Shown in pieces: positions 3,127 through 30,794 of a stretch of 32,000 bases of DNA (the stretch's first letter is position 1; the number at the start of each line of letters is the position of its first letter). Made by a program: the position numbers and the translations under genes. The DNA lies in assembly GCA_963718915.1 (NCBI GenBank), contig CAVRAI010000012.1, forward strand, positions 16,305 through 48,304, given 5' to 3'. The stretch is from an uncultured Chloroflexia bacterium. GTDB taxonomy: Bacteria > Chloroflexota > Ktedonobacteria > Ktedonobacterales > JADMIN01. The notes below the pieces were generated by a model. That model was not told the origin of the DNA. It was given only the letters and a program-made list of their open reading frames with translations, and made no database searches.

Positions 3127-3127
3127 C

Positions 3128-4395: not shown

Positions 4396-4549
4396 GCTCT
4401 AGTGGTAGTACATAGGGCACGCGAGTATCAAGTGTGCGGTACTGGTGTGGTGCGGGTGTCGCCTGAGGGCGACCGGGCTTTCACTCCCATAGCTGCGTCA
4501 GATCTGAAGCAAGGGGCGCTCAGCCCGATTCTCAGGGAGGCAGGTAGAG

Positions 4550-6391: not shown

Positions 6392-6453
6392 GGAACAAGG
6401 CCGCGCCAGTGCGACACGGCCCTGCTCCACCCTGCTCCAAACGGCGAATCGCG

Positions 6454-7611
6454 CTACCGGGTGCTGTGCATCGGCATGATAACGTAGACATAGTCGCTTT
6501 CGTTGCTACCTGGCTTGATAACGCCCGGCTGCTGAGGCGTGTTCAGTTCGAGCGCCACGGTTGGCGTACCGATGACACCCAGCACATCGGTCAGATACTT
6601 GACATTGAAGATGATTTCCATCCCTGGTCCATCCACAGCTGCTTCTCTTGTGGTGGTCGTGTCGCCGTTCTCCTCCGCCGTCGCCACCAGAGTCACGCCG
6701 CCCGGCATCAGGCCACCATTCTCGCCCTCGGCAACTTTCAGCCGCACGATATTGGCGCTATCACGCGCGAAGATAGACGCCTGTTTAGCCGCCTGCTGCA
6801 GTTGCTCTGTAGGCATCGTTACACGGGTGGTGTGGCCCTTCGGCAAAATGACCTCGTAGTTGGGGAACTGCCCGGCGATCAGCGTCGAGACCAGCTCGAG
6901 GTCGTCGCCGATGCGGAAGAGCACCTGGTTGCGGTTTGGCGTCACGACGATATAGACCGTGCCCTCGCCCGGCATCACCTTCGCCAACTCCGTCAACGTG
7001 CGCGCGGGGATGAGCATATCGTTGACGGGCGCGTTGTCCTGGCCACCCGTCTCCTCCAGCGCGGTCGAGCGTACCGCCAGCCGGAAGCTATCCGCGGCGG
7101 CGAATGTCAGCCGCCCCTCGCTCACCCGCGCCAAAACGCCGGTGAAGACCGGGCGGGCGTCATCGGTGGCGGCGGCAAAGGCCACCTCGGCGATCATTGC
7201 CCGCAGCTCCGCCACACTCACCATCAGCGGCGGCTGCCCACCGTCGGCCGTCGGGATCGCCGGAAACTCGCCCGGCTCCATCCCGCGAATCGTCGCCTGG
7301 CTGCGCTGGTCACTCACCTTCAAGCTCTGCCCCGACGGCTGCAACGCCAGCGTGACCTCACTCGGCGGCAGCGTGTTGACGAAATCAGTCAGCAGCCGCG
7401 ATGGGCTGGTGGTGCTGCCCTCCTCCTGGATATTGGCTGGCACCCAGCAGGTGATGCCGATCTCCAGGTTGGTGGCGGAGAGACGCAGGCGACCATTCTC
7501 GGCGGCCAGCAGGATATTGGAGAGAATCGGCAGTGTGCTCCGCGTCGAGACGGCATGGCTGACGGTGGAGAGTCCTCGGGCCAGGTCTTGCTGCTTGCAG
7601 GTGAGCTTCAC
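6454..7611 (-). CDS. dnaN: DNA polymerase III beta sliding clamp
   Basis: VKLTCKQQDLARGLSTVSHAVSTRSTLPILSNILLAAENGRLRLSATNLEIGI... is typical DnaN. GTG 7611 is preceded by GAGGAGG with 6-nt spacing. The track ORF extends to 7701, but that N-terminal extension looks spurious. Confidence 0.92.
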   Translation of the reverse strand: MKLTCKQQDLARGLSTVSHAVSTRSTLPILSNILLAAENGRLRLSATNLEIGITCWVPANIQEEGSTTSPSRLLTDFVNTLPPSEVTLALQPSGQSLKVSDQRSQATIRGMEPGEFPAIPTADGGQPPLMVSVAELRAMIAEVAFAAATDDARPVFTGVLARVSEGRLTFAAADSFRLAVRSTALEETGGQDNAPVNDMLIPARTLTELAKVMPGEGTVYIVVTPNRNQVLFRIGDDLELVSTLIAGQFPNYEVILPKGHTTRVTMPTEQLQQAAKQASIFARDSANIVRLKVAEGENGGLMPGGVTLVATAEENGDTTTTREAAVDGPGMEIIFNVKYLTDVLGVIGTPTVALELNTPQQPGVIKPGSNESDYVYVIMPMHSTR

Positions 7612-11040: not shown

Positions 11041-11221
11041 GACAATCGTAATCCTGATGACCAATCTACCGCATATCTCCGCGCGATGCCAGCATGATAG
11101 CACACCGTACCCGGACGCAAGATGTGGGAAAGCTGTGGGCGCTCGTCATGGTCTGTACCCAGTTGTGTGGGCATACTTGTCCTCAGGTGGAACAGCGAAT
11201 TGTTACCGAAAGGAGCGGGGT

Positions 11222-18182: not shown

Positions 18183-19474
18183 ATGCCACAACAAGTACGT
18201 GTTTTTGTCAGCCATCACCACAGCCCCACTGAGGATACATTCACAGGGTTGCTCGTAAGGGATTTGGAACGGGCGCAAGCAGATGTCTGGGTTGATAAGA
18301 ACGAGATACAACCTGGCGAGGATTTTCAAAGTAGAATCAACTCTGGATTATTAGGTCGACAGTACCTCGTCCTCGTGATGACCCCAGCGGCGTTAGCGTC
18401 GAAATGGGTGCGACAAGAAGTGGCAGCGGCAAATGCTCTCTGTAACAATGGTCAGATGAGAGGAATTATTCCCGTTATCGCAGAACCATGCAGCGAAAAC
18501 GACATACCACCGCTATGGGGCACATATCTTCGTCTGGATGCTACTAAAGACTATACTGCCGCAAGGGATACGCTCCTTCGTACCCTTGGATTACAGCTCC
18601 CTGTTGAACATGAACAGCCTGTGTTCTCATTTCGTTCCCAGGGAGGTATGAAACCGAACGAAGAGATTTGCGGCTGCAGAGTGGTTGAGCCTATCGGTAA
18701 TGGCGACATGGCTATCGTCTATAAGGCAGAACAGATACATGTGGGTAATCGTACGGTAGCCATCAAGATTGTCTATTGCAGCGACCCCAAATCCGTTCGC
18801 GGTTTCCAGCGTGAAGCGAGTATCCTTGCCTCTTTATCACATCCCAATATCGTCCATGTCTTCGATATGGCGTGCAGGGCGACTTCGTATACCTCGTCGT
18901 GGAGTTCATGACGGGCGGTGATCTGCGCAAATACCTCAAGCGCCAGGGCTTCCTGACCCCAGAGCGCGCCGTCGCGATTGCCCACGATGTCGCTCTCGGC
19001 CTTGGTTGTATCCATGATCACGGTATCGTTCACTGTAATGTCAAGCCCGAAGACATTCTCTTGAACGACTACGATGGACTGGCCAAGCTGTCCGACTTTG
19101 GCACCTGTGTATCAACTGACCATGACGAGATTGAGTATAGCGCCATTACCAGTATGTCGCTTGAAACTGTCCGATACTATGCCCCCGAACAAGCGCAGGG
19201 CAAGAGAGTGACGCCCGCCAGCGATATCTACATGTTGGGCATCGTGATGTATGAGATGCTCACGGGCACGGTGCCCTTCGACGGCAATACGCCGGTCGCA
19301 GTGGCGATGCGCCATATTCAGGATATCCCTGAGCCGCCTTCGCATTTGAACCCAGCGATTCCACACGAGTTGGAGTGGATCATCCTGCGCTGTCTCGAAA
19401 AAGATCCACGCAACCGCTATCTCAACGGTAACGAGCTTGTCAAGGCGCTCGATCAATATCAACAGGGGAGATAG
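18183..19474 (+). pseudogene. TIR domain - Ser/Thr protein kinase-like fusion, interrupted by a 1-nt frameshift at about 18866
   Basis: N-terminal TIR: VFVSHHHSPTEDTF...SKWVRQEV. Kinase: IGNGDMAIVYKA, VAIK, FQREASIL, HPNIVHVFD, then the frame shift, then YGVQGDFVYLVVEFMTGG, IVHCNVKPEDILL, SDFG, YYAPE. GGGAGG RBS. Track ORFs 18183-18911 and 18872-19474. Confidence 0.8.
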
Positions 19475-19622: not shown

Positions 19623-20291
19623 CTACTCCTCGCGGTTGATCGTCAGGTCGCGCAGGGTGATCGAGTAGTTCTCGCGCACCTCCGCCAGCAGGAAGCGCAG
19701 CGCCACCTCCGCGCCGAGCGCCACCACCAGCAGCACCAGATTGCGCGCCAGCGGATAGGCGCAGACATCCGGCGCGACGATATCGCCGGGGACACGGTAG
19801 CCCTCGTTCCAGTGGATCTCGCCGTAGTCGGTATGCATGCCAAGGTGCAGGCAGGGGCGTTCGAGGGTGGCGCAGGTGTCGGTGACGAGGCGGCGCGAGG
19901 CCGAGGTATCGAATGTATCGAGCGCAAGGTCGGCATTGCGCAGCAGCTTCGCGGCGTTACGCTCGGTCAGCGGCTGGCTTGCCACCACGAGTTCAACGCC
20001 GGTCGCGCGGTAGCAGCGGGCGCGTAGCGCATCCACCTTGAACGCGCCGATATCGCCCTCCTCGTAGCTCTGCGTGCCAAGGTTGTGCTGCTCGACGCGG
20101 TCGAAGTCGATCACTGTCAACTGGCGGACGCCCTGGCGTAGCAGGTGTTCGGCGAGATGCGAGCCAAGCGCGCCCGCACCACACAGGACAATGCGCGCCT
20201 CCGCCAGTCGCGCCAGCGCCTCGTCGCCGCGATAGAGCGCCTCGTGAATCAGCGGGCCATGCTGGTCGGGTCTATCGGGTCTATCAGGCAT
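19623..20291 (-). CDS. ThiF/MoeB/E1-like adenylyltransferase-fold protein (short form)
   Basis: RIVLCGAGALGSHLAEHLLRQGVRQLTVIDFDRVEQHNLGTQ is the Rossmann nucleotide-binding motif of the ThiF family. The start overlaps the upstream gene by 8 nt. Confidence 0.8.
   Translation of the reverse strand: MPDRPDRPDQHGPLIHEALYRGDEALARLAEARIVLCGAGALGSHLAEHLLRQGVRQLTVIDFDRVEQHNLGTQSYEEGDIGAFKVDALRARCYRATGVELVVASQPLTERNAAKLLRNADLALDTFDTSASRRLVTDTCATLERPCLHLGMHTDYGEIHWNEGYRVPGDIVAPDVCAYPLARNLVLLVVALGAEVALRFLLAEVRENYSITLRDLTINREE
19633..19649. repeat. 17-bp direct repeat, right copy (inside the 3' end of the E1-like gene)
   Basis: CGGTTGATCGTCAGGTC is identical to 17653-17669, 1980 bp away. Confidence 0.95.
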
Positions 20292-21066
20292 AGCGAGGCT
20301 CCCTCCGCCGGGCGAAGACCCACTGCGACGCGCCCTGAACGATGACCGTCACGATGATGGCCGCGACGAACGCGGGCAGGATTCCCGCCGGGACAATCAG
20401 TGTGCCCGCGACCAGAAAGAACGACGCGAACGAGAGCAGCCCCACCAGCAGCCCGCGCAGCAGCCGGAGCGCCGCCGCTGTTCCCGCCTGCGCTTGGGTG
20501 AAGGTGGCGAGCACCGTGCCAAAGATCGGAAACGGCGCCAGCAGCCCGGTGAGGTGCGGGCCAAGCTGAGGCGCGGCGCCAGTCAGCAGCAGCACGAAGA
20601 CCGTGGCGACCACCATCCGCGCGGGAATATCCCATATAGGCGGCGTCATAGCGACAGTATCTTTGACCGGGATACGCGGGAAGAGCGCCAGCGCCAGCGC
20701 CGCCACCACGACGCAGAGCGCGAATGCCAGCGCCAATGGGAGGATGGCCAGTTGCAGCAGCGCAGTCGCCGCGAGAAAGACGAGCCAGCTTGCGAGCAGC
20801 GCGCCGGGCCAGCGCCAGCGGAGAGCCGCCCAGGCATACGTCAGGCAGAAGATGGCCACTGAGATGGTGCCGAAGATGATGCCACGCGCGGTATCCGCCG
20901 CGAAGATTGTGCCGTTTTGCAGCGCGAGGATCAGCAGCACTGGGCCGGAGGTCAGTGGCAGCCCGACGAGCAGCCCGCTCACCGCCGGACCCCACCGCCG
21001 ACCCGCCACGCTCACCAGACCAATCAGCGAGGGCGTCAGCAACGCCTTGAGGAAGAAAAGACTCAT
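20284..21066 (-). CDS. polytopic membrane protein with two DUF3147-like halves
   Basis: MSLFFLKALLTPSLIGLVSVAGRRWGPAVSGLLVGLPLTSGP is repeated as ARMVVATVFVLLLTGAAPQLGPHLTGLLAPFPIFG. An alternative start lies at 21081. Confidence 0.65.
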   Translation of the reverse strand: MSLFFLKALLTPSLIGLVSVAGRRWGPAVSGLLVGLPLTSGPVLLILALQNGTIFAADTARGIIFGTISVAIFCLTYAWAALRWRWPGALLASWLVFLAATALLQLAILPLALAFALCVVVAALALALFPRIPVKDTVAMTPPIWDIPARMVVATVFVLLLTGAAPQLGPHLTGLLAPFPIFGTVLATFTQAQAGTAAALRLLRGLLVGLLSFASFFLVAGTLIVPAGILPAFVAAIIVTVIVQGASQWVFARRREPRYA

Positions 21067-21104
21067 GTTTCCAGTGTACATGTATCGCGCTAGCCCCGTC
21101 GCAT

Positions 21105-21479
21105 CTATGCCGCGGAACCCGCCGATTGACCGTGGGCGAAGAAAGCCAGGAACGCGACGACTCCAACCATCACAAGCAGGGTGAGGATACCAAGGAGAAA
21201 AGCGATCCAGGCGATGCGGCTCCCGCCGCTGCTATCCCTGAGCACCAGGCCAGCCAGGAAAGTAGCGAAGATTGGCAGCGGCCACTCGAAACAAAAGAAG
21301 ACCGTATAGATTGACCCGACGACGATATCGCTACCCGCGCCGGGGATGCGCGCCAGCGTCATGATCGCGTTGACGGCCACAGTCAGCGGCACGATGAGCG
21401 CGAGCGCTAATGCGATCCACGCGGCGACGCGCTGTCGTCTGGGCGACGCGACCGGCGCGGGATACATCTCCGATGTCAT
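21105..21479 (-). CDS. small membrane protein, unknown function
   Basis: MTSEMYPAPVASPRRQRVAAWIALALALIV... with 4 TM helices. The track ORF extends to 21572, which would overlap the upstream gene by 8 nt. Confidence 0.55.
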   Translation of the reverse strand: MTSEMYPAPVASPRRQRVAAWIALALALIVPLTVAVNAIMTLARIPGAGSDIVVGSIYTVFFCFEWPLPIFATFLAGLVLRDSSGGSRIAWIAFLLGILTLLVMVGVVAFLAFFAHGQSAGSAA

Positions 21480-21564
21480 GGCGCCCCACCCTTTCGTAGC
21501 GGATGAACCCTTGATCGCCGAACCATACAGACTATATGACACACACGCCCTGCCTGCCAGTCTA

Positions 21565-22425
21565 TTACTCATCGCCTTCTATCTCGTCGCCGTAGCGGGG
21601 GATGGGCTGGCCTGTCGCCTCGCGCATCACGCTGACCATGCTCGTCAGGTCGAAGCGGGCGTCCTGGCCGGAGAGGCAGATGCCCGCCGTCAGCACCGAG
21701 AGATCGCTCTTGCGCACCGTGCTGACACTGCGCTCGTCCCCGACCATGTAGGCGACGGTGTAGCTGTCGTCGCGCTCGGTGAAGGCGATCAGACGACCGC
21801 CAGCGTGCGCCAGCGCAGTGGCCAGACGTCCGACGATGCCCGCGCGCTCAGCCTCGGACACCAGCGTCCGCGCCCAGGCATAGGCCGCGCGCTCCTCGGC
21901 GGATAGTCCCGACTTGCGCAGATCTTCGGTCGGCGTTCCGGCATCGAGCGCCGCGCGCAGGTAGGTTGCCAGCGCCGGATTGCGCCGGTTGTCGCGTCGC
22001 TCGTACCAGAAGAAGTGGCCATCGAAGCGGGCAAACACCGTCTCGAAGGGCTGGATGCCTGCCTCAGCCAGCAGCACTGGCGCGGGACCGCTGAGCTTGA
22101 GGCCCTTCTCGCCCTGGCTGGCGGGCAGCGCGTACCACTGATGTCCTTCGCGCGCGACAACGATCAGCCGCAGCGCCGGGAAGAGCTTGAGGTAGGCGGC
22201 AATCTCCGCCAGTGTCGCCGGACGGATGAGTTGCGCCGTCTTCAATGTCTCTGGCCGCAGCACACCCCAGCCGGTGAAGCGCTTGCCCGTCACCCGCAGC
22301 GTGCAGACGATGCCCGCGATGCGCACGATGACCCCCCGCCCCGGTAGCACGGGCGCCAGCACCTCGCGCTGGAGGAAGTCGTTTTCGGCGGCCTCCAGCC
22401 GGTTGAGAATGTCATCGATGCCCAT
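21565..22425 (-). CDS. hypothetical protein, 286 aa, no recognisable domain
   Basis: AGGAGG is 9 nt upstream of ATG 22425. Coding-like composition. Sits between the vWA gene and the membrane genes in the same operon-like string. Confidence 0.7.
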   Translation of the reverse strand: MGIDDILNRLEAAENDFLQREVLAPVLPGRGVIVRIAGIVCTLRVTGKRFTGWGVLRPETLKTAQLIRPATLAEIAAYLKLFPALRLIVVAREGHQWYALPASQGEKGLKLSGPAPVLLAEAGIQPFETVFARFDGHFFWYERRDNRRNPALATYLRAALDAGTPTEDLRKSGLSAEERAAYAWARTLVSEAERAGIVGRLATALAHAGGRLIAFTERDDSYTVAYMVGDERSVSTVRKSDLSVLTAGICLSGQDARFDLTSMVSVMREATGQPIPRYGDEIEGDE

Positions 22426-22431
22426 AGCGGT

Positions 22432-23268
22432 TTACCTCCTGACCTCACCCCCATCCCCCTCTCCTGTGGGAGAGGGGGAGCCAGAGTGGAGCAGCCCACG
22501 CGCGCCCAGGCGGCTGATCGCAGCGGAGACGGCGGGACGATTGCTCGCCAGCCGCGTCGCCAACTCGTCGAGGCTGTCGTTGGGATGATCCCTCCGTGCT
22601 GCCAGTACCGTGCGGTCGAACGCCAGGTTGCCGAACTCCTCCACCAGAATCGCCTGAAGCGAGGCGATGGCGTCCTGGCCCTCGGATCGGTCGCGCCAGA
22701 TGGCGAAGAACTCACCGCCAGTCAGGTTGCTGAGCGCGCTGAACGACGACTCGACGCCACTGGTCAGCCCCAGGGCGTAGAACGTCACGCGCGCCTCCTC
22801 GGCTGCCGCCGTCACGCTCTCGATGGTCTCGCCACAGGGACACCCGTGTGGGAAGCCATCGCCACGTCCCCCGACGCCATGCGGTGGCGAGTCACCCACC
22901 AGCACCGCCAGCCGACGCGCGTGTGGCCGCCATGCCAGCTCGCGCACCGCCGCCAGCATACCATCCAGCACCGATTCCGGCCCATCGCCGCCGCCGTTGG
23001 CCGTCAGCCCGTTCAGCGTTGCGCGGGCGGCGTCGAGATTGGCGGTGAGGTCGTAGGCGCGGAAGGGCAGCGGATCCTGCGGCGGGTGGTCGCGGTACTC
23101 GACGATACCCAGCCGCAGGCTGACCTCATCCGCCAACAACAGCGCGTCGATCATGGCGATCATGCGCTGCTGCGCGCTGGCGATGAGGCCGGTCATGCTG
23201 CCGGTGGTGTCCACCACGAAGGCGAGATCGAGCGCAGACACCTCGTCAACGCTCATATCTCCGGTCAT
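22432..23268 (-). CDS. von Willebrand factor A (vWA) domain protein with C-terminal wHTH-like segment
   Basis: MIDAS motif VVDTTGSM, GGGDGPES, VLVGDSPPHG. C-terminal DELATRLASNRPAVSAAISRLGARGLL. The ATG overlaps the upstream stop (ATGA). Confidence 0.85.
   Translation of the reverse strand: MTGDMSVDEVSALDLAFVVDTTGSMTGLIASAQQRMIAMIDALLLADEVSLRLGIVEYRDHPPQDPLPFRAYDLTANLDAARATLNGLTANGGGDGPESVLDGMLAAVRELAWRPHARRLAVLVGDSPPHGVGGRGDGFPHGCPCGETIESVTAAAEEARVTFYALGLTSGVESSFSALSNLTGGEFFAIWRDRSEGQDAIASLQAILVEEFGNLAFDRTVLAARRDHPNDSLDELATRLASNRPAVSAAISRLGARGLLHSGSPSPTGEGDGGEVRR
22441..22486. repeat. REP-like palindromic element, copy 2 (inverted relative to copy 1)
   Basis: Contains the perfect hairpin CCCCCTCTCC-TGTG-GGAGAGGGGG. 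Its reverse complement aligns with 12193-12236. It supplies the last ~18 codons (SPSPTGEGDGGEVRR) of the vWA ORF. Confidence 0.7.
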
Positions 23269-24854
23269 GACGCCTTCCTTTCCGGCAGCGGGTACTCCAG
23301 AATCTCCATCAGCAGATCGACCATCGACGGCCGCTGGAGCAGCGGGATCAGGTTCGGTAGCGCGTAGTAGTCGCCGCTGAACGTGAAGACACTCGGCGCG
23401 ATGCCCAGGCCGGTGCAGGCGCGCTCCAGGATGTTGGAGGAATGCCCCACCTTCACCAGAATCACGTCGGGCCGGGTCTGCGTCTCCTCGCTGTAGGCCT
23501 TGTAGGCGTTGGCGAAGAGCGGCGCCTGGTTCTCACCCTCATCGGTGACGAGGATGAACTGCTCGACGCGCTGACCCTTGCGCCGCATCATCTCGATGGC
23601 CACGCCACACGACGTGCCGCCGCCCGCGGTGATGCCCGTCAGCGCCTTCTCCCACTCCGACAGAGACGCGCCACTGGCCTCGATGGGGTAGGCGATGGTG
23701 TCGAAGGCATAGGCGAAGAACTCCGCCTCGATGATGGACGAGATCATCGCGCCCAACTGACGACCTACCTCGATGGCGACATGCATGGATCCGCTCTTGT
23801 CCAGCAACATCGCCGTCGAGCGCGTGATGCGCCCCTTGGCCTTCACCTGCGCCTCGGTGATGGCATCCAGCTGCTCGGCCAGCTCGCCGGAGACGTTGGC
23901 CGCCTCGACCGCGACCTTCGCCTTGTAGGCGGAGACGCGCTTGTCGCTCTTGGCCGCCTCCAGCTTCGCCTCGATTAGCGCCTTGACGTCCTCGTTGTCG
24001 AACGCGCCACGCGCCTTGAGCGAGCCGATGTTGTTGATGACCTCCTGTGGGGTCATCACCTCAACCAGCGCCGCCAGCACCGTCGGCGACATCTGCTTGA
24101 CGAGCGAGGTCGCCACCCGGTACGGGATGTGATGCTCGACCAGTGCGCGCGCCTGCTCGGCGGGCGTCTCGGCCTGGCGGATAGCCCGCATCGCGGCGAA
24201 GACGCTGCCCTCCGGCGGCTCCTCGCCAAAAAGCACCGCCTGCGCCCGCCCGGTGGGGCGGATGTGCAGCCCAGCGTAGAGTCGCTTGATGGCCGCACGC
24301 GCATGCAGCACCGCCTGATCGAACTTCTCGACATGCGCCTCGCGCTCGCGCAGGTAGCGCTCGATCTCGGTGCGCATCGAACGTGGGACGTTGACGAAGA
24401 GGCCGACCTGCTCGATCTTCGTCTCCATCGGCACGGCAGGCTTGCGGGATGCCTTACGACCGCGCCGACCAGTGGTCCCGGCCGCCGGAGTGGCAGCCGG
24501 CTCAGGCGCGCTTGCCACTGTGGCTGTTGCATCCGCCACGGGCACACGCCGCTTCACCTGGTGGCCCTTAATGAAGTCCACCACGCGGGCAAGCTGGTAC
24601 GGTGGCAGGCGACGCATCAGCGCCAGGCCAACGTCGCGATGCCCCTCCGCCTGCGAGAGGCAGAGGCAGATCACAAACATCTCCTGGTGGTCGCGCACCT
24701 CGCCGTGGTCGGCATACCACGCGGCCAGCCGCACGTAGAAGCGCGGATCCCGCGTCAGGATTTCCTGGTGCTGAGGATACAATGCGGTCAGGTTGCGGTG
24801 TGGCGTCGTCAACAGCGTGTTGAGCAGGTCCAGCCGCAGGTCACGCTCGGTCAT
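23265..24854 (-). CDS. Ro60/Rsr-like protein (TROVE-like helical N-domain plus C-terminal vWA)
   Basis: 529 aa. DPRFYVRLAAWYADHGEVRDHQEMFVICLCLS...RRLPPYQLARVVDFIKG resembles the TROVE pattern of Ro60. C-terminal vWA motifs LLDKSGSM, TAGGGTSCG, FILVTDEGEN and PDVILVKVG parallel Ro60 DVSASM, AGGTDC, FTDNET and AKLIVCGM. GGAAGGGAGGG RBS. Confidence 0.6.
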   Translation of the reverse strand: MTERDLRLDLLNTLLTTPHRNLTALYPQHQEILTRDPRFYVRLAAWYADHGEVRDHQEMFVICLCLSQAEGHRDVGLALMRRLPPYQLARVVDFIKGHQVKRRVPVADATATVASAPEPAATPAAGTTGRRGRKASRKPAVPMETKIEQVGLFVNVPRSMRTEIERYLREREAHVEKFDQAVLHARAAIKRLYAGLHIRPTGRAQAVLFGEEPPEGSVFAAMRAIRQAETPAEQARALVEHHIPYRVATSLVKQMSPTVLAALVEVMTPQEVINNIGSLKARGAFDNEDVKALIEAKLEAAKSDKRVSAYKAKVAVEAANVSGELAEQLDAITEAQVKAKGRITRSTAMLLDKSGSMHVAIEVGRQLGAMISSIIEAEFFAYAFDTIAYPIEASGASLSEWEKALTGITAGGGTSCGVAIEMMRRKGQRVEQFILVTDEGENQAPLFANAYKAYSEETQTRPDVILVKVGHSSNILERACTGLGIAPSVFTFSGDYYALPNLIPLLQRPSMVDLLMEILEYPLPERKAS

Positions 24855-24915
24855 TGGATATCCCTCCCTTCCTGGGAAATTGCAGGCTTACAAGCCTCAC
24901 TCTCTTGGCCATAAA

Positions 24916-24925
24916 TGAACGTTCA
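24916..24925. promoter_or_regulatory. 10-bp palindrome in the leader of the Ro-like gene
   Basis: TGAACGTTCA lies about 65 nt upstream of ATG 24854. A second palindrome AGGCTTACAAGCCT lies at about 24883-24896. Confidence 0.3.
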
Positions 24926-24965
24926 CTTTTATTCCGAACACCATGCGTCGTGGTGGGGGAGGCAA

Positions 24966-24987
24966 GCCGTAGCGTAAACGCTACGGC
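24966..24987. other. perfect 9-bp stem / 4-nt loop hairpin between the small gene and the Ro-like gene
   Basis: GCCGTAGCG-TAAA-CGCTACGGC, extendable by GGGGAGG/CCT(A)CCCC. No U-tract on either strand. Confidence 0.6.
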
Positions 24988-25137
24988 GAATTTCCTACCC
25001 CTCACGCTCTGGCCTATTCGCCGGGGCATTCATGCTCCGGCAGGCTCACCCTACGACACCGTTCGGGGTAAATTCGTAACGTTCTTCAACCGCCAGCCGT
25101 CGCGGCGTGTCGCATCAAGGCCGGGATTGCTACCCCA

Positions 25138-25377
25138 TCACCCGAAGACAGCCTCCGGGCGGACGGTGATGTTGCCGTTCTCGTGGCGCTCGACCACGTA
25201 CGGCGCGAATCGGCCAACCGCTACGTCGAAGTAGTTCGCCAGGGCGCCCAGCACCTCGGCCTCGCTGGCATCCGGCGCGAGATGGAGCGCGCTCAGCGGC
25301 ATCTGGCGGCTCACACCCTCGAAGCGGACGTGCAGCATCGGCTCGGTCGGCTCGATACGCTGGATTGGCTCTGCCAT
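25138..25377 (-). CDS. small (79 aa) protein ending in Gly; possible beta-grasp/ubiquitin-like fold (speculative)
   Basis: GGAGGAGG is 6 nt before ATG 25377. MAEPIQRIEPTEPMLHVRFEGVSRQMPLSALHLAPDASEAEVLGALANYFDVAVGRFAPYVVERHENGNITVRPEAVFG*. The predicted strand-strand-helix-strand-strand pattern was judged by eye. Confidence 0.65.
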   Translation of the reverse strand: MAEPIQRIEPTEPMLHVRFEGVSRQMPLSALHLAPDASEAEVLGALANYFDVAVGRFAPYVVERHENGNITVRPEAVFG

Positions 25378-25670
25378 ACGATTCCTCCTCCTTCCGCGAA
25401 GTCGCGCGGAAAAACAAAATGGACGTGAGAGCGGCTGCCCCCACGTCCGACACCGCGCACACGCGCTCATCCTCCCGTGGGATGTGGCAGACCGACAGCC
25501 AGGCTATTGAGCGGGCACGAATAGCTATGCGCGTCCGCTATTGCTGGTTGTCGCCAGATGATGGATTTGGCCATCGTCATCTGTTCCACAGTCGGTTTCC
25601 TTGTCATCCATTGGGTACTGGCGCGTCTCGCCACGGCGCCGGAGGAATCGCTATCGCCCTCCGGCTGCAT

Positions 25671-25940: not shown

Positions 25941-26600
25941 TTAAGCCGTTTCACTGAAGACCGGCATCAATATCTCATCTACCAGCAACTCCAACTGGCG
26001 CGCGTCAATCGGGGTCCGGTGCAGCAGATATTGCATACGAATCAGGTCGAACGGCAGGCGTAGCGCGAACTCGCTCACATCCTTGAGCTTCTCGCTGCGC
26101 ACCCTGGCAAAGTCCAATACTTTCCGTATCGCGAGGATGTTTTTCTTGACCGCGTTCTGGCCGATTGCCACCATCGTCGGGCTATTCTGGCTCATCTCGA
26201 AGAGCATCGCATTCATGATTTCCGGGCCAACTTCAATGTAGAAGCGTTGATACAGCGTCAGCATGCACAGCAAATCGCCGCGCAGGCTCCCTGTATCCTC
26301 GATCATGTCAATGAAATCGCCGCCCAGCGCGTGCAGCAACTTCTCCACCACGATGTCGTGGATCAGCTCGAGCGGCGTCTCCCAGCGGCGATAGAGCACG
26401 GTGCGGCTCGTCTGCGCTGCCTGTGCGATCCTCTGGAACGTCAGGTTCGTGTACCCTTCGGTCTTGATGATGTCCTCGACTGCCTGATAGATGCTCTCGG
26501 TCAGCGTGTCGCCACGCCTGCGCGTGTCTCTGCGTTCAGCCTTCTCGATTTTGCTAGCTCTCGCAGATTTATCGACCTTGATAGCCGTCTTGCTCACCAT
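25941..26600 (-). CDS. TetR/AcrR-family transcriptional regulator
   Basis: GGAGG is 8 nt before ATG 26600. IYQAVEDIIKTEGYTNLTFQRIAQAAQTSRTVLYRRWETPLELI is a TetR HTH. GC is visibly lower than the surroundings. Confidence 0.9.
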   Translation of the reverse strand: MVSKTAIKVDKSARASKIEKAERRDTRRRGDTLTESIYQAVEDIIKTEGYTNLTFQRIAQAAQTSRTVLYRRWETPLELIHDIVVEKLLHALGGDFIDMIEDTGSLRGDLLCMLTLYQRFYIEVGPEIMNAMLFEMSQNSPTMVAIGQNAVKKNILAIRKVLDFARVRSEKLKDVSEFALRLPFDLIRMQYLLHRTPIDARQLELLVDEILMPVFSETA

Positions 26601-26665
26601 AGGATGTGCCTCCTCACCATACTCTGCCCTCATTTTGCCACATCTCTGCCACTTTTGGGTACATC

Positions 26666-26728
26666 TTGCACTTTATTTCGTGGTGAAGTACAATGTGTAC
26701 CGTAATAGGGTACAATATGTACCGTAAT
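26666..26728 (+). promoter_or_regulatory. MFS promoter with two tandem palindromic TetR-type operators
   Basis: TTGCAC (26666-26671), 17 nt, TACAAT (26689-26694). Direct repeat of GTACAATGTGTACCGTAAT (26688-26706) and GTACAATATGTACCGTAAT (26710-26728), each containing a GTACA-N3-TGTAC palindrome. Confidence 0.65.
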
Positions 26729-26742
26729 GAGGCGAGGCAAGC

Positions 26743-28260
26743 ATGGTAAACACAACAAACACGCAAGAGCAAACAAACATGCAGGAGCAACAAGAAAAGG
26801 CCATCCCTGGCCACATCATCGTGTTGGCGTTGATTATGGTGCTGGGGGCGGTCCCGCCGATGCTGGACACCACCATCGTCAACATCGCCGTCAACGACCT
26901 CTCCCAGCAGTTTAACGTTCCGTTCGTCACGACGCAGTGGGTGGTGACGGGCTATGTCCTGGCGCTGGCCATCGCCGTGCCGTTTTCCGGCTGGCTCATC
27001 CAAAAGTTCGACGGCAAGCGCATCTTTATGAGCACGCTGGGTCTGTTCCTGGTCGGCAGCCTGTTCTCCGGCCTGTCATGGAACATCGAGAGTCTGATCG
27101 CGTTTCGCGTGGTCCAGGGCTTCGCGTCCGGCCTGCTGATTCCGACGCTGACGACGCTGCTGGTGCAGCTCGCGGGCAGCAATAAGCTCGGGCGGCTGAT
27201 GTCTATCGTGAGCGTCCCTATCGTCTTGGGGCCAATCGTGGGGCCGGTCATCGGCGGGCTGATCTTGCAACGGCTGACGTGGCACTGGCTGTTCTTCGTC
27301 AATCTGCCCATCGGCGCGGTGGCCCTTATACTGATGCAGTGGAAGCTGCCTAAATTCGCGCCCACGAATACTGCCGCGAAGCTCGACGTGCTCGGCATCG
27401 CGCTGCTGGCGCTGATCTCTGGCATGTTCATCTTCGGCGTGACCGAGATCAGGGGAACCGACACGCAGACGCTCGGCCTCGGCGCACTCATCGCGGGCGC
27501 CGTGGCGACGCTGTTGTACCTGCTCTACGCCTGGCGCCAGGCGGGCCACGCGCTGATCCCGCTGGGCCTGTTCCGCTCGCGGAACTTCAGCGCGGCGTTC
27601 GCCTCGCTCTTCCTGGCGGGCTTTGCCACCAACGGGCCGATGCTGCTACTCCCAGTCTTTTTCCAGAATGTGCGCGGGCTGGACGCCATCACGGCGGCGC
27701 TCTGGCTGATTCCGCAGGGCGTGGGCATGCTGCTGACGCGCTCGCCCATCGGCAGGATGACCGATAGGTTCGGCGCGCGGCTGGTGGTGCTCCCGGCCAT
27801 TGCGATTATCATCGTCGGCACGCTGCCCTTTGCCTTCTTCGACGCGACGACGCCGACCTGGCTCATCTGGCTCGCCCTGCTTGTGCGCGGCATAGGTATT
27901 GGCGGCTTCACCATCCCGGTGATGACCGATGCCTATGTGGGCATGCCGAAGCCACAAATTCCGCAGGTCAGTATCGCTACGCGCATCATCAATAATGTGG
28001 GCGCGGCCTTTGGCTCCGCGCTGCTGGCCACGGTTGTCACGAATGCCTTCGCCGGGCCGAGCGCCGGGCTGGCGGGCCTCACCAGCGCCTACCACGCTGG
28101 CTTTCTCTTCAGCCTCGCCTTCACGGCCATCGGTATCCTCCCCGCCGCCTTCCTCACCAACAGACTCGCAACGTCGAAGGCAGCGTCGAAGGCGGATGCG
28201 AAGCCGGATGCCATGGAAGCGATGCTGGAGGAGGAGAACGCAGCCTACAGCGTCGAGTAA
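26743..28260 (+). CDS. MFS transporter, DHA2 (EmrB/QacA-like) family
   Basis: 505 aa. MLDTTIVNIAVNDL, GWLIQKFDGKR and FRVVQGFASGLLIP motifs. Divergent from the TetR gene. Confidence 0.9.
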   Translation: MVNTTNTQEQTNMQEQQEKAIPGHIIVLALIMVLGAVPPMLDTTIVNIAVNDLSQQFNVPFVTTQWVVTGYVLALAIAVPFSGWLIQKFDGKRIFMSTLGLFLVGSLFSGLSWNIESLIAFRVVQGFASGLLIPTLTTLLVQLAGSNKLGRLMSIVSVPIVLGPIVGPVIGGLILQRLTWHWLFFVNLPIGAVALILMQWKLPKFAPTNTAAKLDVLGIALLALISGMFIFGVTEIRGTDTQTLGLGALIAGAVATLLYLLYAWRQAGHALIPLGLFRSRNFSAAFASLFLAGFATNGPMLLLPVFFQNVRGLDAITAALWLIPQGVGMLLTRSPIGRMTDRFGARLVVLPAIAIIIVGTLPFAFFDATTPTWLIWLALLVRGIGIGGFTIPVMTDAYVGMPKPQIPQVSIATRIINNVGAAFGSALLATVVTNAFAGPSAGLAGLTSAYHAGFLFSLAFTAIGILPAAFLTNRLATSKAASKADAKPDAMEAMLEEENAAYSVE

Positions 28261-28332: not shown

Positions 28333-28361
28333 TTGCGGATAGACCCATCATGTGCTAGACT
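28333..28361 (+). promoter_or_regulatory. promoter P1 of the first RNA triplet (A-X1-B)
   Basis: TTGCGG (28333-28338), 17 nt, extended -10 TGC-TAGACT (28356-28361). Same layout as P2, 492 bp downstream. Confidence 0.55.
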
Positions 28362-28373
28362 GCCTGACTGATA

Positions 28374-28500
28374 GAGTTGTCTGCGCCCTCACCTGGGATG
28401 CATACATGCGCGGGTTCGATTCCCGCTACGCCCACCACGCGGGCGTATAGTTCAATGGTAGAACACAACACTCAGCCTCGCGAACTCGCGCGGATGACTC
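28374..28500 (+). ncRNA. tRNA-mimic (YrlA/Y-RNA-like) module A
   Basis: 13-bp basal helix 28374-28386/28488-28500 (3 G-U pairs). T-arm GCGGG-TTCGATT-CCCGC (28410-28426). Acceptor TACGCCC / loop ACCACGC / GGGCGTA. Then TA and D-arm GTTC-AATGGTA-GAAC. Confidence 0.6.
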
Positions 28501-28508
28501 TTTGCCAA

Positions 28509-28621
28509 CATGTCCCGTATCCTCACAGCGGTTGCATACAAACGGGCTGAACACCCACTGGTTTTTGCAACCAGTTTCCCGCAAGGGATTCTCTTCGCGA
28601 CCGAAACTTGTGCGGGACATG
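28509..28621 (+). ncRNA. variant module X1 (same family, non-tRNA hairpins of tRNA-like dimensions)
   Basis: 9-bp closing helix CATGTCCCG/CGGGACATG. Hairpins GGG-CTGAACA-CCC, ACTGGTT-TTTGC-AACCAGT (7 bp) and TCCC-GCAA-GGGA. Shares the 5' CCTCAC..GCATACA and 3' CTTCGCGA..AACT motifs. Confidence 0.5.
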
Positions 28622-28652
28622 GCATAATAGCATGTGGCATCAATCGTGATTT

Positions 28653-28801
28653 GGCCGGGCGCGTCCTCACCAGCGTAGCCTACATTCAATCCTCAAACTG
28701 GAATCGCGGGTTCGACTCCCGCCGCCCCTTCGGGAGCGTAGTCTAGTGGCCCAGGACGCCAGTACCTGAATACACTGCTTCGCGAACTCGCGCGCTCGGC
28801 C
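28653..28801 (+). ncRNA. tRNA-mimic (YrlA/Y-RNA-like) module B
   Basis: 11-bp basal helix GGCCGGGCGCG/CGCGCTCGGCC. Anticodon-stem-like ACTGG/CCAGT. T-arm GCGGG-TTCGACT-CCCGC. Acceptor capped by TTCG. D-arm GTCT-AGTGGCCCA-GGAC. Confidence 0.6.
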
Positions 28802-28824
28802 CATCGCGTGTCATGAAATTGCCC

Positions 28825-28853
28825 TTGCGCAAGCGTGCGCCATGTGCTAGACT
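28825..28853 (+). promoter_or_regulatory. promoter P2 of the second RNA triplet (C-X2-D)
   Basis: TTGCGC (28825-28830), 17 nt, TGC-TAGACT (28848-28853). The downstream CATGTGCTAGACTGCCTGACTG is identical to P1. Confidence 0.55.
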
Positions 28854-28865
28854 GCCTGACTGGTG

Positions 28866-29002
28866 GAGTCGTCCGCGCCCCCACGAGGGAAGCATACAAC
28901 CTACAGTTGCGGGTGCAAATCCCGTCGCCTCGACCGCTTCGAGGCGTAGCTCAATAGCAGAGCATCGGCAGTAACTGCTTCGCAAACTTGCGCGGACGAC
29001 TC
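28866..29002 (+). ncRNA. tRNA-mimic (YrlA/Y-RNA-like) module C
   Basis: Perfect 13-bp basal helix GAGTCGTCCGCGC/GCGCGGACGACTC. T-arm GCGGG-TGCAAAT-CCCGT. Acceptor CGCCTCG / loop ACCGCTT / CGAGGCG. D-arm GCTC-AATAGCA-GAGC. Confidence 0.6.
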
Positions 29003-29041
29003 ATCCCAACCGATATCATTCGCACAGATGATCCATGGCGG

Positions 29042-29160
29042 CATGCCCCGTATCCTCACAACGGTTGCGTACAAACTGGGCTTGAAACCCCCAAACTGGC
29101 TGTAAACCAGTTCCCTGATAAGGGATCTCACATCTGCGACCGAAACTTGTGCGGGGCATG
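29042..29160 (+). ncRNA. variant module X2
   Basis: Closing helix CATGCCCCG/CGGGGCATG carries a compensatory T-A to C-G change relative to X1. Hairpins GGG-CTTGAAA-CCC, AACTGG-CTGTAAA-CCAGTT and CCCT-GATA-AGGG. Confidence 0.5.
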
Positions 29161-29180
29161 GCTTTCGCGAACAACGTCGG

Positions 29181-29302
29181 CGCTGGGCGCGCCCTCAACT
29201 GGGAAGCGTACATACACTGCGGGTTCGACTCCCGTCGTCTCCACCTTTTGGGGATGCTCACTGGTCACGTATTTTCCGCTTCTCGAACTTGCGCGTCCGG
29301 CG
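29181..29302 (+). ncRNA. tRNA-mimic module D (D-arm degenerate)
   Basis: 11-bp basal helix CGCTGGGCGCG/CGCGTCCGGCG (2 G-U pairs). T-arm GCGGG-TTCGACT-CCCGT. Acceptor CGTCTCC / loop ACCTTTT / GGGGATG. Confidence 0.5.
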
Positions 29303-29343
29303 CGTCCGCGTTTCCTCCTCCCGTATCCTCGCCCCGCGGTGAA

Positions 29344-29373
29344 TTGACGCCCCAGACGCCGCGCTCCTATACT
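29344..29373 (+). promoter_or_regulatory. sigma70-like promoter of the downstream PEGA-like gene
   Basis: TTGACG (29344-29349), 18 nt, TATACT (29368-29373), about 47 nt upstream of ATG 29421. Confidence 0.55.
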
Positions 29374-29420: not shown

Positions 29421-30794
29421 ATGGAGATGGATGACGATTTCGAGCTAGAAGTCACCAATCTGGATACCGGCGAAACGATACGCCACCCACTTGCCCACAA
29501 CGCGCCCGCTGAGCCGGGACGTGATGATAACAACGATGCTAACGATGACAACGATGACAACGACGATGGCGACGAGCTGACGCCCGACCCATCCAGGCCG
29601 GGGCGCCGCAATCGTCTGCGGGCGGCCATCGTTGCTGGTGTCGTGTTGCTGGCGGTTGCGCTGGTCATCGCGACCAATCCGGCTGCGAACTCGTCGCTCT
29701 ATACCGTCTTTCGCTTTCCGACGCCCGTGCCCTCGCCCACTCCGCTGCCCGGTGGCGACATTGTTTACCTTGGCCGGGCAGCCCCGTGGGGCAGTGTCAC
29801 CATCGACGGCAAGAAGTCCGCGTTCACCAATCCAGGCACGACCATCTCGTGGATCAAGCTCCCTCGCGGCCGCCATACCATCGCGGTCATACAGACGCCA
29901 TTTCCCGCGCTGCACTGCACTATCTCTATGCCAGCCCGCCTGAGCGACACCTGCCCGCTCTTCTCGCCTATCGACAACCAGGGCGAGCAAATTGGCGCCG
30001 GACCGAACTTTCCCGGCGGCGCGCGTTTCGTTGACCTGGGCGCGCGTTTTAGCCTGCTGCCACGAGACGCCCAGGATGCGCTGGTGGCGGCGGTCAAAGC
30101 CGAACTGACGCAGCCGAGCACGCCAATGACACTCTATCCCGGCGACCACTATCTCCGCGATGACGGTACATTAGCCGTGGCGGATACCACGCTCCAGGCG
30201 ACCTTCATCCCAACGCTTCTGCTGCCCGCCCCGGAAATCCCGTCGGATAGCTCGTCGTGCATCTCGTTCTGCGATGTCTCTGGCGTAGACGTGGGAGGCA
30301 ATGCCACCTGGAATATCATCGTCTCGATGTTGGGAAGCTGGCATGTTGCCACCCCCGACGGTCAGGTGCTGACGGAAAGCTCGCCGATGTACGTCAGCGA
30401 TCCGCTGTATGAGGCCTTTTCGGGATCGATGCAGGTCACGATGAGCCTGCTCTGGACGGGGAGATGGCAGGTGAGCGCACAGAACGGCTTTGGCGGCGCA
30501 TGGTCTCCGACCTGCCAGACCGCGGAGACGATGACGAGCGCCAATCTGGGGAAGAATCAACTCACCATCCTGGGCATGAATACTGAGTATGGGAGCACGG
30601 CTGAACAGGGTTGTGTCGTCGAAATCACGCCCAACAATCCGAATGCCAACAGCCCCATCGACCTCCTCTATCGTTTCGGTGTGCTGCTCGCCGCCAACGA
30701 TATCGCCCATCGCACGTTTCCATCGCTCCCGCGGGCATCGGCAGCCGAGCGGATCGCGGCGCAACGGCTTCTCACGCAGTCCTATCCCCCCTGA
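29421..30794 (+). CDS. single-pass membrane protein with acidic N-terminal tail and PEGA-like extracytoplasmic domain
   Basis: 457 aa. DDNNDANDDNDDNDDGDE low-complexity stretch. TM LRAAIVAGVVLLAVALVIA. APWGSVTIDGKK...LPRGRHTIAV is PEGA-like. Conserved Cys pattern shared with the next gene. Confidence 0.75.
   Translation: MEMDDDFELEVTNLDTGETIRHPLAHNAPAEPGRDDNNDANDDNDDNDDGDELTPDPSRPGRRNRLRAAIVAGVVLLAVALVIATNPAANSSLYTVFRFPTPVPSPTPLPGGDIVYLGRAAPWGSVTIDGKKSAFTNPGTTISWIKLPRGRHTIAVIQTPFPALHCTISMPARLSDTCPLFSPIDNQGEQIGAGPNFPGGARFVDLGARFSLLPRDAQDALVAAVKAELTQPSTPMTLYPGDHYLRDDGTLAVADTTLQATFIPTLLLPAPEIPSDSSSCISFCDVSGVDVGGNATWNIIVSMLGSWHVATPDGQVLTESSPMYVSDPLYEAFSGSMQVTMSLLWTGRWQVSAQNGFGGAWSPTCQTAETMTSANLGKNQLTILGMNTEYGSTAEQGCVVEITPNNPNANSPIDLLYRFGVLLAANDIAHRTFPSLPRASAAERIAAQRLLTQSYPP

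Follow-up and report, generated by a model that had tools for sequence, protein, structure and literature searches.

Two structured RNAs in a Chloroflexota RNA array as candidate Y-like RNAs of a divergent Ro60-like protein

Bacterial loci for Rsr harbour two or more Y RNAs, of which one is tRNA-like (YrlA) while at least one is not, and these RNAs are often cut from one precursor (PMC4201824). Y RNAs combine a stem formed by the 5' and 3' ends, which holds the Ro60 site, with a second module that binds effectors (PMC4201824; bioRxiv 10.1101/312249). The effector domain of Yrn1 consists of three stem-loops, and Rsr has been associated with RtcB (bioRxiv 10.1101/312249). All bacterial Y RNAs carry a conserved GNCGAAN0-1G near the 5' end, the proposed Rsr contact, and Chen et al. 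2014 used location within 4 kb of a Ro60 orthologue, on the same strand, as the criterion for a Y RNA (PMC4201824). So far, bacterial Y RNAs have been found by searching beside TROVE-annotated genes. Here we describe two RNA modules, X1 and X2, in a window of 32,000 nt (the whole stretch of DNA that was analysed) from an uncultured Chloroflexia bacterium assigned to the Ktedonobacterales (GenBank assembly GCA_963718915.1, contig CAVRAI010000012.1, positions 16,305 to 48,304 of the forward strand). X1 and X2 are real and conserved small structured RNA genes. We consider it likely that they are paralogous non-coding RNA genes of about 113-119 nt, which belong to a Y-RNA-like family and partner a divergent Ro60-like protein encoded in the same window. 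We favour this explanation, in which X is a non-tRNA-like Y RNA of a divergent Ro60-like system, because the array that contains X1 and X2 has the design of the Y RNAs at Rsr loci.

The X modules lie in an interval (28333-29340) that is bounded by a gene for an MFS transporter (26743-28260) and a gene for a 457-aa protein (29421-30794). It contains a tandem pair of units, each about 500 nt long and made up of a conserved promoter-like block and, after it, three RNA modules. The modules are ordered A1-X1-B1 and then A2-X2-B2, with each X sitting between tRNA-like modules (Table 1). A combined pattern of the 5' and 3' motifs matched four modules in the window and nothing in 100 shuffled sequences. 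This bears out the initial annotation, made from the sequence of this DNA, in which X1 and X2 were described as being flanked by tRNA-like modules and as sharing the family 5' and 3' motifs. The two promoter-like elements, P1 and P2, form a 58-nt direct repeat with 86% identity; P1 was not called in a consensus promoter scan of the window. Judging from these sequence elements, P1 probably drives an A1-X1-B1 transcript, and P2 probably drives an A2-X2-B2 transcript.

X1 and X2 are 85% identical. The minimum free energy fold of X has a closing helix of 12 bp, an asymmetric internal loop with CCUCACAR opposite AAACUU, a 7-bp helix (CGGUUGC/GCGACCG) and three hairpins, which are joined by long junction linkers of 8-11 nt. 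The hairpins read GGG, 7 nt and CCC; ACUGG...CCAGU; and UCCC-GCAA-GGGA in X1 or UCCCU-GAUA-AGGGA in X2. Fold z-scores were -5.3 for X1 and -5.25 for X2, and none of 200 shuffled sequences was as stable. X has neither a GGUUCGA-type T-loop nor a D-loop, and A1, A2, B1 and B2 do have T- and D-loops. The presence of three hairpins and the absence of T- and D-loop sequences, both of which had been noted in the initial annotation, were confirmed, and the three hairpins are kept in all of 19 distinct homologues.

These homologues were obtained by scanning a pattern made from the shared motifs over 185,579 species-representative genomes and over metagenome contigs. The fetched loci (labelled below with an L and a number) were then searched with two covariance models, R1 for the handle, which is the part of a module that is left when its insert is removed, and R2 for X. 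All homologues come from metagenome-assembled contigs. R2 recovered 23 full-length copies of X and one truncated copy at 100-142 bits, the next best match scoring 59 bits and all other modules at most 50 bits. X1 itself scored 108 bits with R2 and 55 bits with R1, and X2 scored 141.6 and 56.6 bits, respectively. A search with an X covariance model had been proposed in the initial annotation, and since it returned homologues elsewhere, the objection that X might have no homologues does not apply. Among the fetched loci, X copies were confined to contigs labelled Ktedonobacterales or "Chloroflexia". The 19 distinct sequences fall into two to three paralogue groups per array.

Covariation in X was counted on a model-guided alignment; plain MAFFT misaligned hairpins 1 and 2. 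In this alignment, which leans towards the model structure, 94.8% of the cells were paired as opposed to at most 41.6% with slid partners, and 16 pairs had changed on both sides. The closing-helix pair that is U-A in X1 and C-G in X2 was found as CG in 15 homologous sequences, as UA in 7 and as UG in 2. Two pairs of hairpin 3 switch between U-A and C-G (15/9 and 8/16), and the closing pair of hairpin 2 is AU in 17, GU in 4, UA in 2 and CG in 1. Such compensatory changes in hairpins 2 and 3 uphold the earlier statement that the hairpin stems differ in sequence and yet stay paired. The handle in the X homologues is nearly invariant, with an entropy of 0.00-0.26 bits per position. Some details of the initial annotation have to be revised. 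The compensatory change in the closing helix is real, but the helix had been given as 9 bp long and the fold yields 12 bp. Furthermore, CCUCAC had been placed in a small loop closed by CCG/CGG, and covariation makes it the 5' strand of the internal loop, facing AACUU and flanked by helices that both covary.

A truncated third X unit had also been proposed at 29318-29340. The segment 29320-29339 agrees with the X 5' motif over just 11 nt (CCCGTATCCTC). A 3' partner is missing, and neither R1 nor R2 matched the segment. It is therefore better described as a degenerate remnant, probably the decayed 5' end of a lost module and not a functional unit. A comparable CCTCAC-like remnant is present in the homologous spacers of L003, L014, L030 and L032, and these remnants lie just 5' of the -35 box (TTGACG) of the next gene.

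The handle itself was aligned for 21 diverse modules with their inserts removed. Its layout begins with a terminal stem and continues with CC(U/C)CA(C/A)N, which faces (R)ACUU; next come another stem, about 8 bp long, and a GC-R-UACA-Y-AC linker. Among these 21 handles, 90.8% of the cells were paired and 15 of the 19 pairs showed a compensatory change. The covariation score was 0.683, compared with 0.224 for shuffled alignments (0 of 500 reached 0.683) and at most 0.21 with slid partners. Both handle stems covary strongly across phyla. Within the window R1 matched the array only, and through local alignment it recovered modules with differing inserts. Pattern matches in L001, L002, L005, L006, L017-L020, L023, L024, L029, L031, L039, L042, L047 and L049 had no R1 support and were set aside as chance matches; this included L020, the one viral contig among the pattern matches.

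Four types of insert were found on this handle. Type (a) consists of permuted tRNA top halves as in YrlA and is represented by the A and B modules of the window. The insert of A1 comprises a T-arm, a 7-bp acceptor hairpin with ACCA in its loop, and a D-arm; the terminal stem of A2 is a perfect inverted repeat of 13 bp; and B2, in which a G3.U70 pair can be read from the sequence, resembles tRNA-Ala or the tRNA-like domain of tmRNA. With the YrlA model (RF02553, threshold 69 bits), A1, A2 and B1 scored 27-35 bits and B2 scored 15 bits, the modules of L008 reached up to 45.7 bits, and no handle module in six related loci reached the threshold. Type (b) has a D-arm, an anticodon arm and a T-arm in normal order, with the handle in place of the acceptor stem. 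Modules of this type (L004, L012, L016, L034, L036, L048 and L059) were called tRNA by ARAGORN and Rfam, and their anticodon loop is the most variable part. Type (c) is an exact copy of CCAGUACGAGAGGAAC, which we take to be the universal sarcin-ricin loop sequence of 23S rRNA, in L010, L021, L033, L037 and others. Type (d), a multi-hairpin insert that is not tRNA-like, is found in X and in modules of L027, L055, L057, L058 and L059.

The protein that we consider the candidate partner of the handle came to light through L027 and L048. In both of these loci, handle RNAs directly abut same-strand genes for proteins of about 500 aa with a C-terminal vWA domain, and the two proteins are 57% identical. 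A tblastn search from these RNA-adjacent genes found the window gene 23265-24854, with 49% identity. This gene belongs to a family of at least 2,581 members (E <= 1e-5), all of which are named "hypothetical". The 529-aa product had no match in Pfam or NCBIfam and none to TROVE (PF05731) at E-values up to 10, and Pfam scans of 20 open reading frames of the window revealed no TROVE domain and, hence, no canonical Rsr. Searches next to TROVE genes miss this system, because neither Pfam nor NCBIfam picks up its Ro60-like protein, whose annotation is "hypothetical".

The relationship to Ro60 emerged from the predicted structure. An AlphaFold model of the 529-aa protein, based on a 40-sequence alignment, had a pLDDT of 81.9 and a pTM of 0.71. 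When this model was compared with the PDB by Foldseek, the top 13 matches were all Ro60, Rsr or TROVE structures (E-values of 4.5e-10 to 3e-7, TM-scores of 0.56-0.70), comprising human and Xenopus Ro60, D. radiodurans Rsr and the Ro60 of a Thermus phage. The matches were full-length, with 542-603 aligned columns and an identity of 12-15%. A family profile gave a weak colinear match to a TROVE chain in the PDB (E = 0.38), and the homologue P0062 had a sub-threshold match to PF25045, the Ro60 vWA domain (E = 2.6e-4). On the predicted structure, the protein has the Ro60 architecture of an alpha-helical ring with a C-terminal vWA domain, and the product of 23265-24854 is predicted to adopt the full Ro60 fold of ring and vWA.

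The Ro-like gene is part of a conserved operon, which occupies 19623-25470 on the minus strand of the window. The operon encodes a ubiquitin-like candidate and the Ro-like protein, along with one or two proteins that are unknown or of the vWA type, frequently a JAB peptidase, and a ThiF/E1-like protein. The gene order of the window was also found in L058, and JAB-containing variants were found in L054, L055, L057 and L059. The coupling of a Ro60-type protein to a ubiquitin-like conjugation cassette is unusual. We found no description of an arrangement of Ro-like, ubiquitin-like, E1 and JAB genes for Rsr loci, while an earlier computational description of TROVE-like proteins in ubiquitin-like operons is possible. 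Among 26 papers since 2018 that mention YrlA, none describes the handle, the arrays or the family of the Ro60-like protein.

Handle RNAs and the Ro-like gene co-occur. The Ro-like gene is near arrays in the window, L011, L035/L041, L013 and L008, and in L011 and L035 array and operon are adjacent and divergent. Contigs of seven further diverse Ro-like homologues were fetched. L055, L057, L058 and L059 contain 2-5 handle RNAs in a gene-free gap just 3' of the operon, on the same strand, and in L052/L053 one handle module and 13 tRNA genes lie immediately upstream of the Ro-like gene. Altogether, a handle RNA was found beside the Ro-like gene in seven of nine independent contexts, when the Ktedonobacterales arrangement, L027 and L048 are included. 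Measured against the 4-kb, same-strand criterion, the RNAs of L027, L048, L055, L057, L058 and L059 are adjacent and on the same strand, and those of the window are at 3.5 kb on the opposite strand. X furthermore has an architecture of the Y RNA type, with a 12-bp terminal stem, an internal loop, a 7-bp stem, covariation in these stems, and a separate insert of three hairpins.

Table 1. RNA modules, promoter-like elements and operon genes in the window, with positions, strands and remarks.
Feature	Position	Strand	Remarks
Promoter-like element P1 (TTGCGG, 17 nt, TGc-TAGACT)	28333..28361	+	just 5' of A1; repeat with P2; kept in L008
A1, handle and permuted tRNA-like insert	28374..28500	+	YrlA match 34.8 bits; fits handle pattern
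X1 RNA module	28509..28621	+	fold z-score, covariance models
X1 stem 1, 5' strand	28509-28520	+	
X1 internal loop CCUCACAG	28521-28528	+	
X1 stem 2, 5' strand	28529-28535	+	
X1 linker AUACAAAC	28536-28543	+	
X1 hairpin 1	28544-28556	+	
X1 hairpin 2	28557-28575	+	
X1 hairpin 3	28577-28588	+	
X1 stem 2, 3' strand	28597-28603	+	
X1 opposite loop AAACUU	28604-28609	+	
X1 stem 1, 3' strand	28610-28621	+	
B1, handle, permuted tRNA-like insert and extra variable-arm hairpin	28654..28800	+	YrlA match 27.2 bits (full model length); motif scan
Promoter-like element P2 (TTGCGC, 17 nt, TGc-TAGACT)	28825..28853	+	same basis as P1
A2, handle and permuted tRNA-like insert	28866..29002	+	YrlA match 28.7 bits; R1 57.5 bits
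X2 RNA module	29042..29160	+	fold z-score, covariance models
X2 hairpin 1	29078-29090		loop CUUGAAA
X2 hairpin 2	29095-29111		loop CUGUAAA
X2 hairpin 3	29112-29125		
B2, handle, T-arm and acceptor hairpin (G3.U70, ACC)	29182..29303	+	R1 56.1 bits; weak Rfam tmRNA/permuted tmRNA matches
Degenerate remnant of module 5' handle (CCCGTATCCTCGCCCCGCGG)	29320..29339	+	11-nt identity to X 5' motif
ThiF/E1-like protein	19623-20291	-	Pfam; PADLOC E1 match
Unknown 286-aa protein	21565-22425	-	operon member, beside an unknown open reading frame
vWA protein	22432-23268	-	Pfam
Divergent Ro60/Rsr-like protein, 529 aa (helical ring and C-terminal vWA)	23265..24854	-	AlphaFold and Foldseek
Small ubiquitin-like candidate ending ...RPEAVFG	25138..25470	-	homologous to a 76-aa open reading frame before the Ro-like gene elsewhere

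Hairpin 2 of X has a stem of 5-6 bp and a loop of 7 nt. All nine distinct variants of this loop start with a pyrimidine followed by U (positions 1 and 2); position 6 is a purine in eight of them, and position 7 is A in eight. Positions 3-5 have an entropy of 1.3-2.0 bits and read GUA, GUC, AUU, UUU, CGA, UGA and others. The pattern of an anticodon loop is Y32, U33, N34-36, R37 and A38. Hairpin 1 (GGG, 7 nt, CCC) is mostly of the CU-NNN-AA form, hairpin 3 has a short stem with a GCAA cap or longer loops, and similar anticodon-like loops are present in modules of L027, L057, L058 and L059. We hypothesise that hairpins 1 and 2 of X carry 7-nt U-turn-type loops, YU-NNN-RA, like those of anticodon arms. 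By position, stem 2 would be equivalent to the acceptor stem, hairpin 1 to the D-arm, hairpin 2 to the anticodon arm and hairpin 3 to the T-arm. Since the hairpin order, the lengths and the UACA(A/U)AC linker agree with the type (b) modules, X appears as a cloverleaf-shaped relative in normal order. The earlier proposal that the hairpins of X are a permuted set of T-arm, acceptor and D-arm is less likely than this normal-order cloverleaf, given the layout and the linker of the handle RNAs from other lineages. On this hypothesis, X kept an anticodon-arm-like hairpin and lost the elbow-forming T- and D-loop sequences.

Taken together, the modules suggest the following mechanism. Each X would be the middle unit of a three-module A-X-B transcript from a duplicated promoter, and the modules would be processed into separate RNAs. 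The handle would serve as the docking site for the Ro60-like protein 23265-24854, as suggested by their co-location and by the analogy with Ro60 and Y RNAs. The insert would be an effector or display module, with A and B having a permuted tRNA top half and X a three-hairpin, cloverleaf-shaped domain in which the middle triplets of the loops vary freely among homologues and the flanking loop positions and the stems are fixed. Speculatively, X would tether the Ro-like protein, and by way of this protein the ubiquitin-like/E1 machinery of the operon, to a factor or RNA able to recognise hairpins like those of anticodon arms. Alternatively, and as speculatively, X would resemble canonical Y RNAs in that it occupies or gates the Ro-like protein.

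Several observations weigh against a partnership of X with the Ro-like protein, or against parts of it. X lacks GNCGAAN0-1G, its 5' strand reading ...CCCGUAU-CCUCACAG-CGGUUGC..., and all 21 handle variants have CC(U/C/A)CA where bacterial Y RNAs have GNCGAA. The Ro-like gene of the window is 3.5 kb away on the opposite strand, with TetR and MFS genes intervening. The Ro-like loci L054 (a short contig) and L056 (where the operon is broken by a transposase) have no handle RNA, and the handle RNAs of the L004 type and of the sarcin-ricin-loop type have no Ro-like gene within the fetched DNA. The binding of the handle by the Ro-like protein is something that we infer from genomic association and analogy, and another protein of the operon could be the true partner of the handle. 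Concerning the fold, the covariation in X stems largely from a few lineages, and several of the double changes come from the lone distant sequence of L027. Hairpin 1 is invariant among the X homologues and therefore gains no support from covariation. Lastly, some loops of the X3 type are also compatible with longer stems that end in 3-nt loops. The anticodon-loop reading is therefore not universal, and it is for this reason that we keep it as a hypothesis.

A wider proposal, which we put forward with considerable reserve, is that X and its siblings are the RNA subunits of an undescribed ribonucleoprotein with Ro60-like, ubiquitin-like, E1 and JAB components. On one constant handle, their exchangeable inserts would copy pieces of the translation apparatus, with anticodon arms in X, the tRNA elbow and an acceptor with CCA in A and B, and the sarcin-ricin loop in separate modules. 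The RNAs would act as decoys, sensors or adaptors that link damage to translation RNAs, or attack on these, to RNA quality control and ubiquitin-like tagging. Such a system may be widespread in the Chloroflexota and present in some other phyla. Another explanation, which seems unlikely to us, is that X serves as a decoy or sentinel against nucleases or toxins directed at the translation apparatus. The array would present cleavable mimics, which are anticodon loops in X and tRNA top halves with CCA in A and B, and the sarcin-ricin loop would be displayed by a separate module at another place in the genome. Attack on the mimics would then be absorbed or sensed, and Ro-like, ubiquitin-like/E1 and RtcB-type machinery would handle the consequences; this could also be a sub-mechanism of the partnership with the Ro60-like protein that we favour. 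The inserts do copy toxin targets, namely the sarcin-ricin loop CCAGUACGAGAGGAAC, as an exact copy, and anticodon-like loops with fast-changing triplets. The tRNA-like modules of the L004 type differ almost solely in the anticodon loop, and tRNA arrays and RtcB are found beside the operon (L059, L052). However, the argument for decoys is purely inferential, with no toxin or nuclease gene consistently linked to the modules; the variable loop triplets may merely be unconstrained; and PADLOC found no known defence system apart from generic similarity to E1 and JAB.

If X were instead a decayed tRNA-like module, that is a functionless pseudogene copy derived from an adjacent Y-like unit, without T- and D-loops, that persists inside a transcribed array, the handle and cloverleaf layout common to X and the tRNA-like modules would be expected, and the remnant at 29320-29339 shows that degenerate modules exist. 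Nevertheless, we regard this as quite improbable, as arrays retain two to three paralogues of X each over the 19 distinct sequences, the handle is nearly invariant and the hairpins stay paired via compensatory changes. In addition, non-tRNA multi-hairpin modules also occur in the distant arrays of L055, L057, L058, L059 and L027. Very improbable is the view that X acts independently of the Ro-like protein, either in trans as an antisense or kissing-loop small RNA or in cis as a leader of the 457-aa gene. Loops of 7 nt that start with YU are typical of rapid pairing, and YUNR U-turn loops occur in antisense RNAs, but the loop triplets of X differ among close relatives, so that the targets would keep shifting. 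With respect to a leader, homologues of the conserved gene for about 460 aa trail the array in all contigs of the Ktedonobacterales type; yet this gene has its own promoter-like site past the array (29344-29373), and in other lineages unrelated genes trail the arrays. Neither version explains why X shares its handle with tRNA-like and sarcin-ricin-loop modules. The suggestion that the modules represent multiple copies of a MITE- or REP-type element, small and mobile or repetitive, and not RNA genes, fits the tandem units with terminal inverted repeats, but is hardly credible in view of the other data: the copies in the window are confined to one array, no transposase is present, covariation keeps RNA helices including G-U pairs that are pairs on one strand only, and the strand and position of the modules relative to the Ro-like operon are conserved.

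If X1 and X2 indeed partner the Ro60-like protein, partnerships of Ro60 with Y RNAs would be broader than thought, and the RNA-binding handle could diverge completely on its 5' strand. A single protein would have at its disposal arrays of as many as eight Y-like RNAs, whose variable modules mimic different translation RNAs. The link to a ubiquitin-like cassette, joined in some genomes by RtcB and large tRNA arrays, would suggest that RNA surveillance and protein tagging are connected in bacteria. For X, a formerly unclassifiable structured RNA would now have a candidate partner protein.

Several other features of the array and of related loci should be mentioned. In B2, the G3.U70 pair followed by ACC is the alanine identity pair that is also present in tmRNA. 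Cleavage by RNase P could expose tRNA-like 3' ends of A1, where ACCA lies in the hairpin loop, and of B2, as reported for the YrlA of M. smegmatis. ARAGORN called no tRNA or tmRNA gene in the whole window, and an Rfam scan of the window at gathering thresholds had no match. In low-GC relatives (L057 14753-14837 and the array end of L059), a U-run follows the terminal stem of the last module, for which reason the handle stem may also act as an intrinsic terminator; in the window, B2 is not followed by a run of U. Ribozymes and known loop motifs (hammerhead, on account of CGAAAC in X, kink-turn, SRP and 5S rRNA) were checked by eye and rejected, since their other defining motifs are absent. At the position of CGAAAC in X, the A and B modules have only GAACU.

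At least one kind of handle RNA also occurs outside arrays. A stand-alone RNA with a sarcin-ricin loop is located at L010 1180-1302 on the minus strand, with others in L021, L033, L037, L038, L043, L045 and L051. The module of L010 and the A-X-B array of L008 are from the same metagenome-assembled genome (both DASUHD01). Near-identical RNAs of type (b) are found at L004 4213-4335, L012 2579-2700 and L016 173-295 and in L034, L036 and L050. These six are in contigs binned as Burkholderiales or Xenobia and differ almost solely in the anticodon loop, which reads GAU, UUG, a 6-nt loop or others, and ARAGORN called them tRNA-Ile, tRNA-Gln or undetermined. A shared partner beside the Burkholderiales-type modules, L009, L010 and L016 was sought in vain: only alpha-amylase family, zinc-ribbon and unknown proteins were present, and none was common to them.

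Turning to the neighbouring genes, TetR and MFS transporter genes (25941-28260) separate the Ro-like operon from the RNA array. Since operon and array are adjacent and divergent in L035 and L011, this gene pair has the look of an insertion. In L059, about 33 tRNA genes (1016-5520 and 5566-6708) are located just 5' of the Ro-like operon, together with a gene for an RtcB RNA ligase and with HNH genes, and in L052 an array of 13 tRNA genes (5023-6957) is located just 5' of the Ro-like gene. Rfam matches to CRISPR-DR28 in L008 (340-363) and L035 (2790-2813), at 36.5 bits against a threshold of 35, are most likely false positives, because they are isolated single matches within Ro-like coding sequence. 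Downstream of the array, 29421-30794 (plus strand) encodes the 457-aa protein, whose N-terminus is acidic and for which one membrane helix is predicted; an exact-sequence look-up of this protein gave no record. Upstream of the Ro-like operon, two genes have products of types typical of conflict or signalling systems: the product of 18183-18911 (plus strand) combines a TIR domain with the beginning of a protein kinase domain, and that of 9070-11103 (minus strand) is an HTH protein that also has NB-ARC/NACHT and TPR domains.

With regard to the known systems, the initial annotation could match X to no RNA class. Indeed, X1 and X2 had no match to RF02553, to RF00005 or to any other Rfam family at E-values up to 10. 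A match to the Y RNA kind is nevertheless suggested by the nearby, structurally Ro60-like protein, which co-occurs with handle RNAs across lineages. The protein shares with Ro60 and Rsr the predicted fold of ring and vWA and the presence of stem-closed small RNAs nearby, and differs from them in its identity of 12-15% to solved Ro60 structures and in its operon with ubiquitin-like, E1 and often JAB genes. RtcB near the Ro-like operon in one lineage (L059) agrees with what is known of Rsr and its association with RtcB (bioRxiv 10.1101/312249). The A and B modules have in common with YrlA the layout of stem, variable region, T-arm, closed acceptor hairpin, D-arm and stem. X shares the handle with these YrlA-like modules, but, unlike YrlA, its hairpin order fits a normal, non-permuted cloverleaf. 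Hairpin 2 resembles a tRNA anticodon stem-loop in its stem and in its 7-nt loop, which starts with a pyrimidine and an invariant U and has a purine and an A at positions 6 and 7; unlike a tRNA, X has neither an acceptor end nor elbow-forming T- and D-loops.

The closest counterparts of X are YrlB of Salmonella and M. smegmatis and Yrn2 and Yrn1 of D. radiodurans. Like these, X is a small RNA closed by a long stem of 5' and 3' ends, and it is modular, with a stem that binds protein (putatively so in X) and a variable second domain. YrlB, Yrn2 and Yrn1 are clustered with a tRNA-like sibling near a Ro60-type gene and are made from polycistronic precursors (PMC4201824); X is clustered with tRNA-like siblings as well, 3.5 kb from a gene for a predicted Ro60-like protein on the opposite strand, and would likewise come from such a precursor. 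The differences lie in the handle, which has CCUCAC opposite AACUU where known Y RNAs have GNCGAAN0-1G or GGUCCGA on the 5' strand, and of which ACUUG on the 3' strand is the sole part that resembles the YrlA consensus. Moreover, unlike the partner proteins of YrlB and the Yrn RNAs, the candidate partner of X is not recognisable as TROVE by sequence, and X is a four-way junction with anticodon-like loops. Because GNCGAAN0-1G is absent from X and RF02553 was not matched, X would work like a Y RNA while standing outside YrlA and YrlB. By analogy, X is therefore best read as a kind of non-tRNA-like Y RNA that resembles YrlB, or Yrn1, whose effector domain and the X insert each have three stem-loops.

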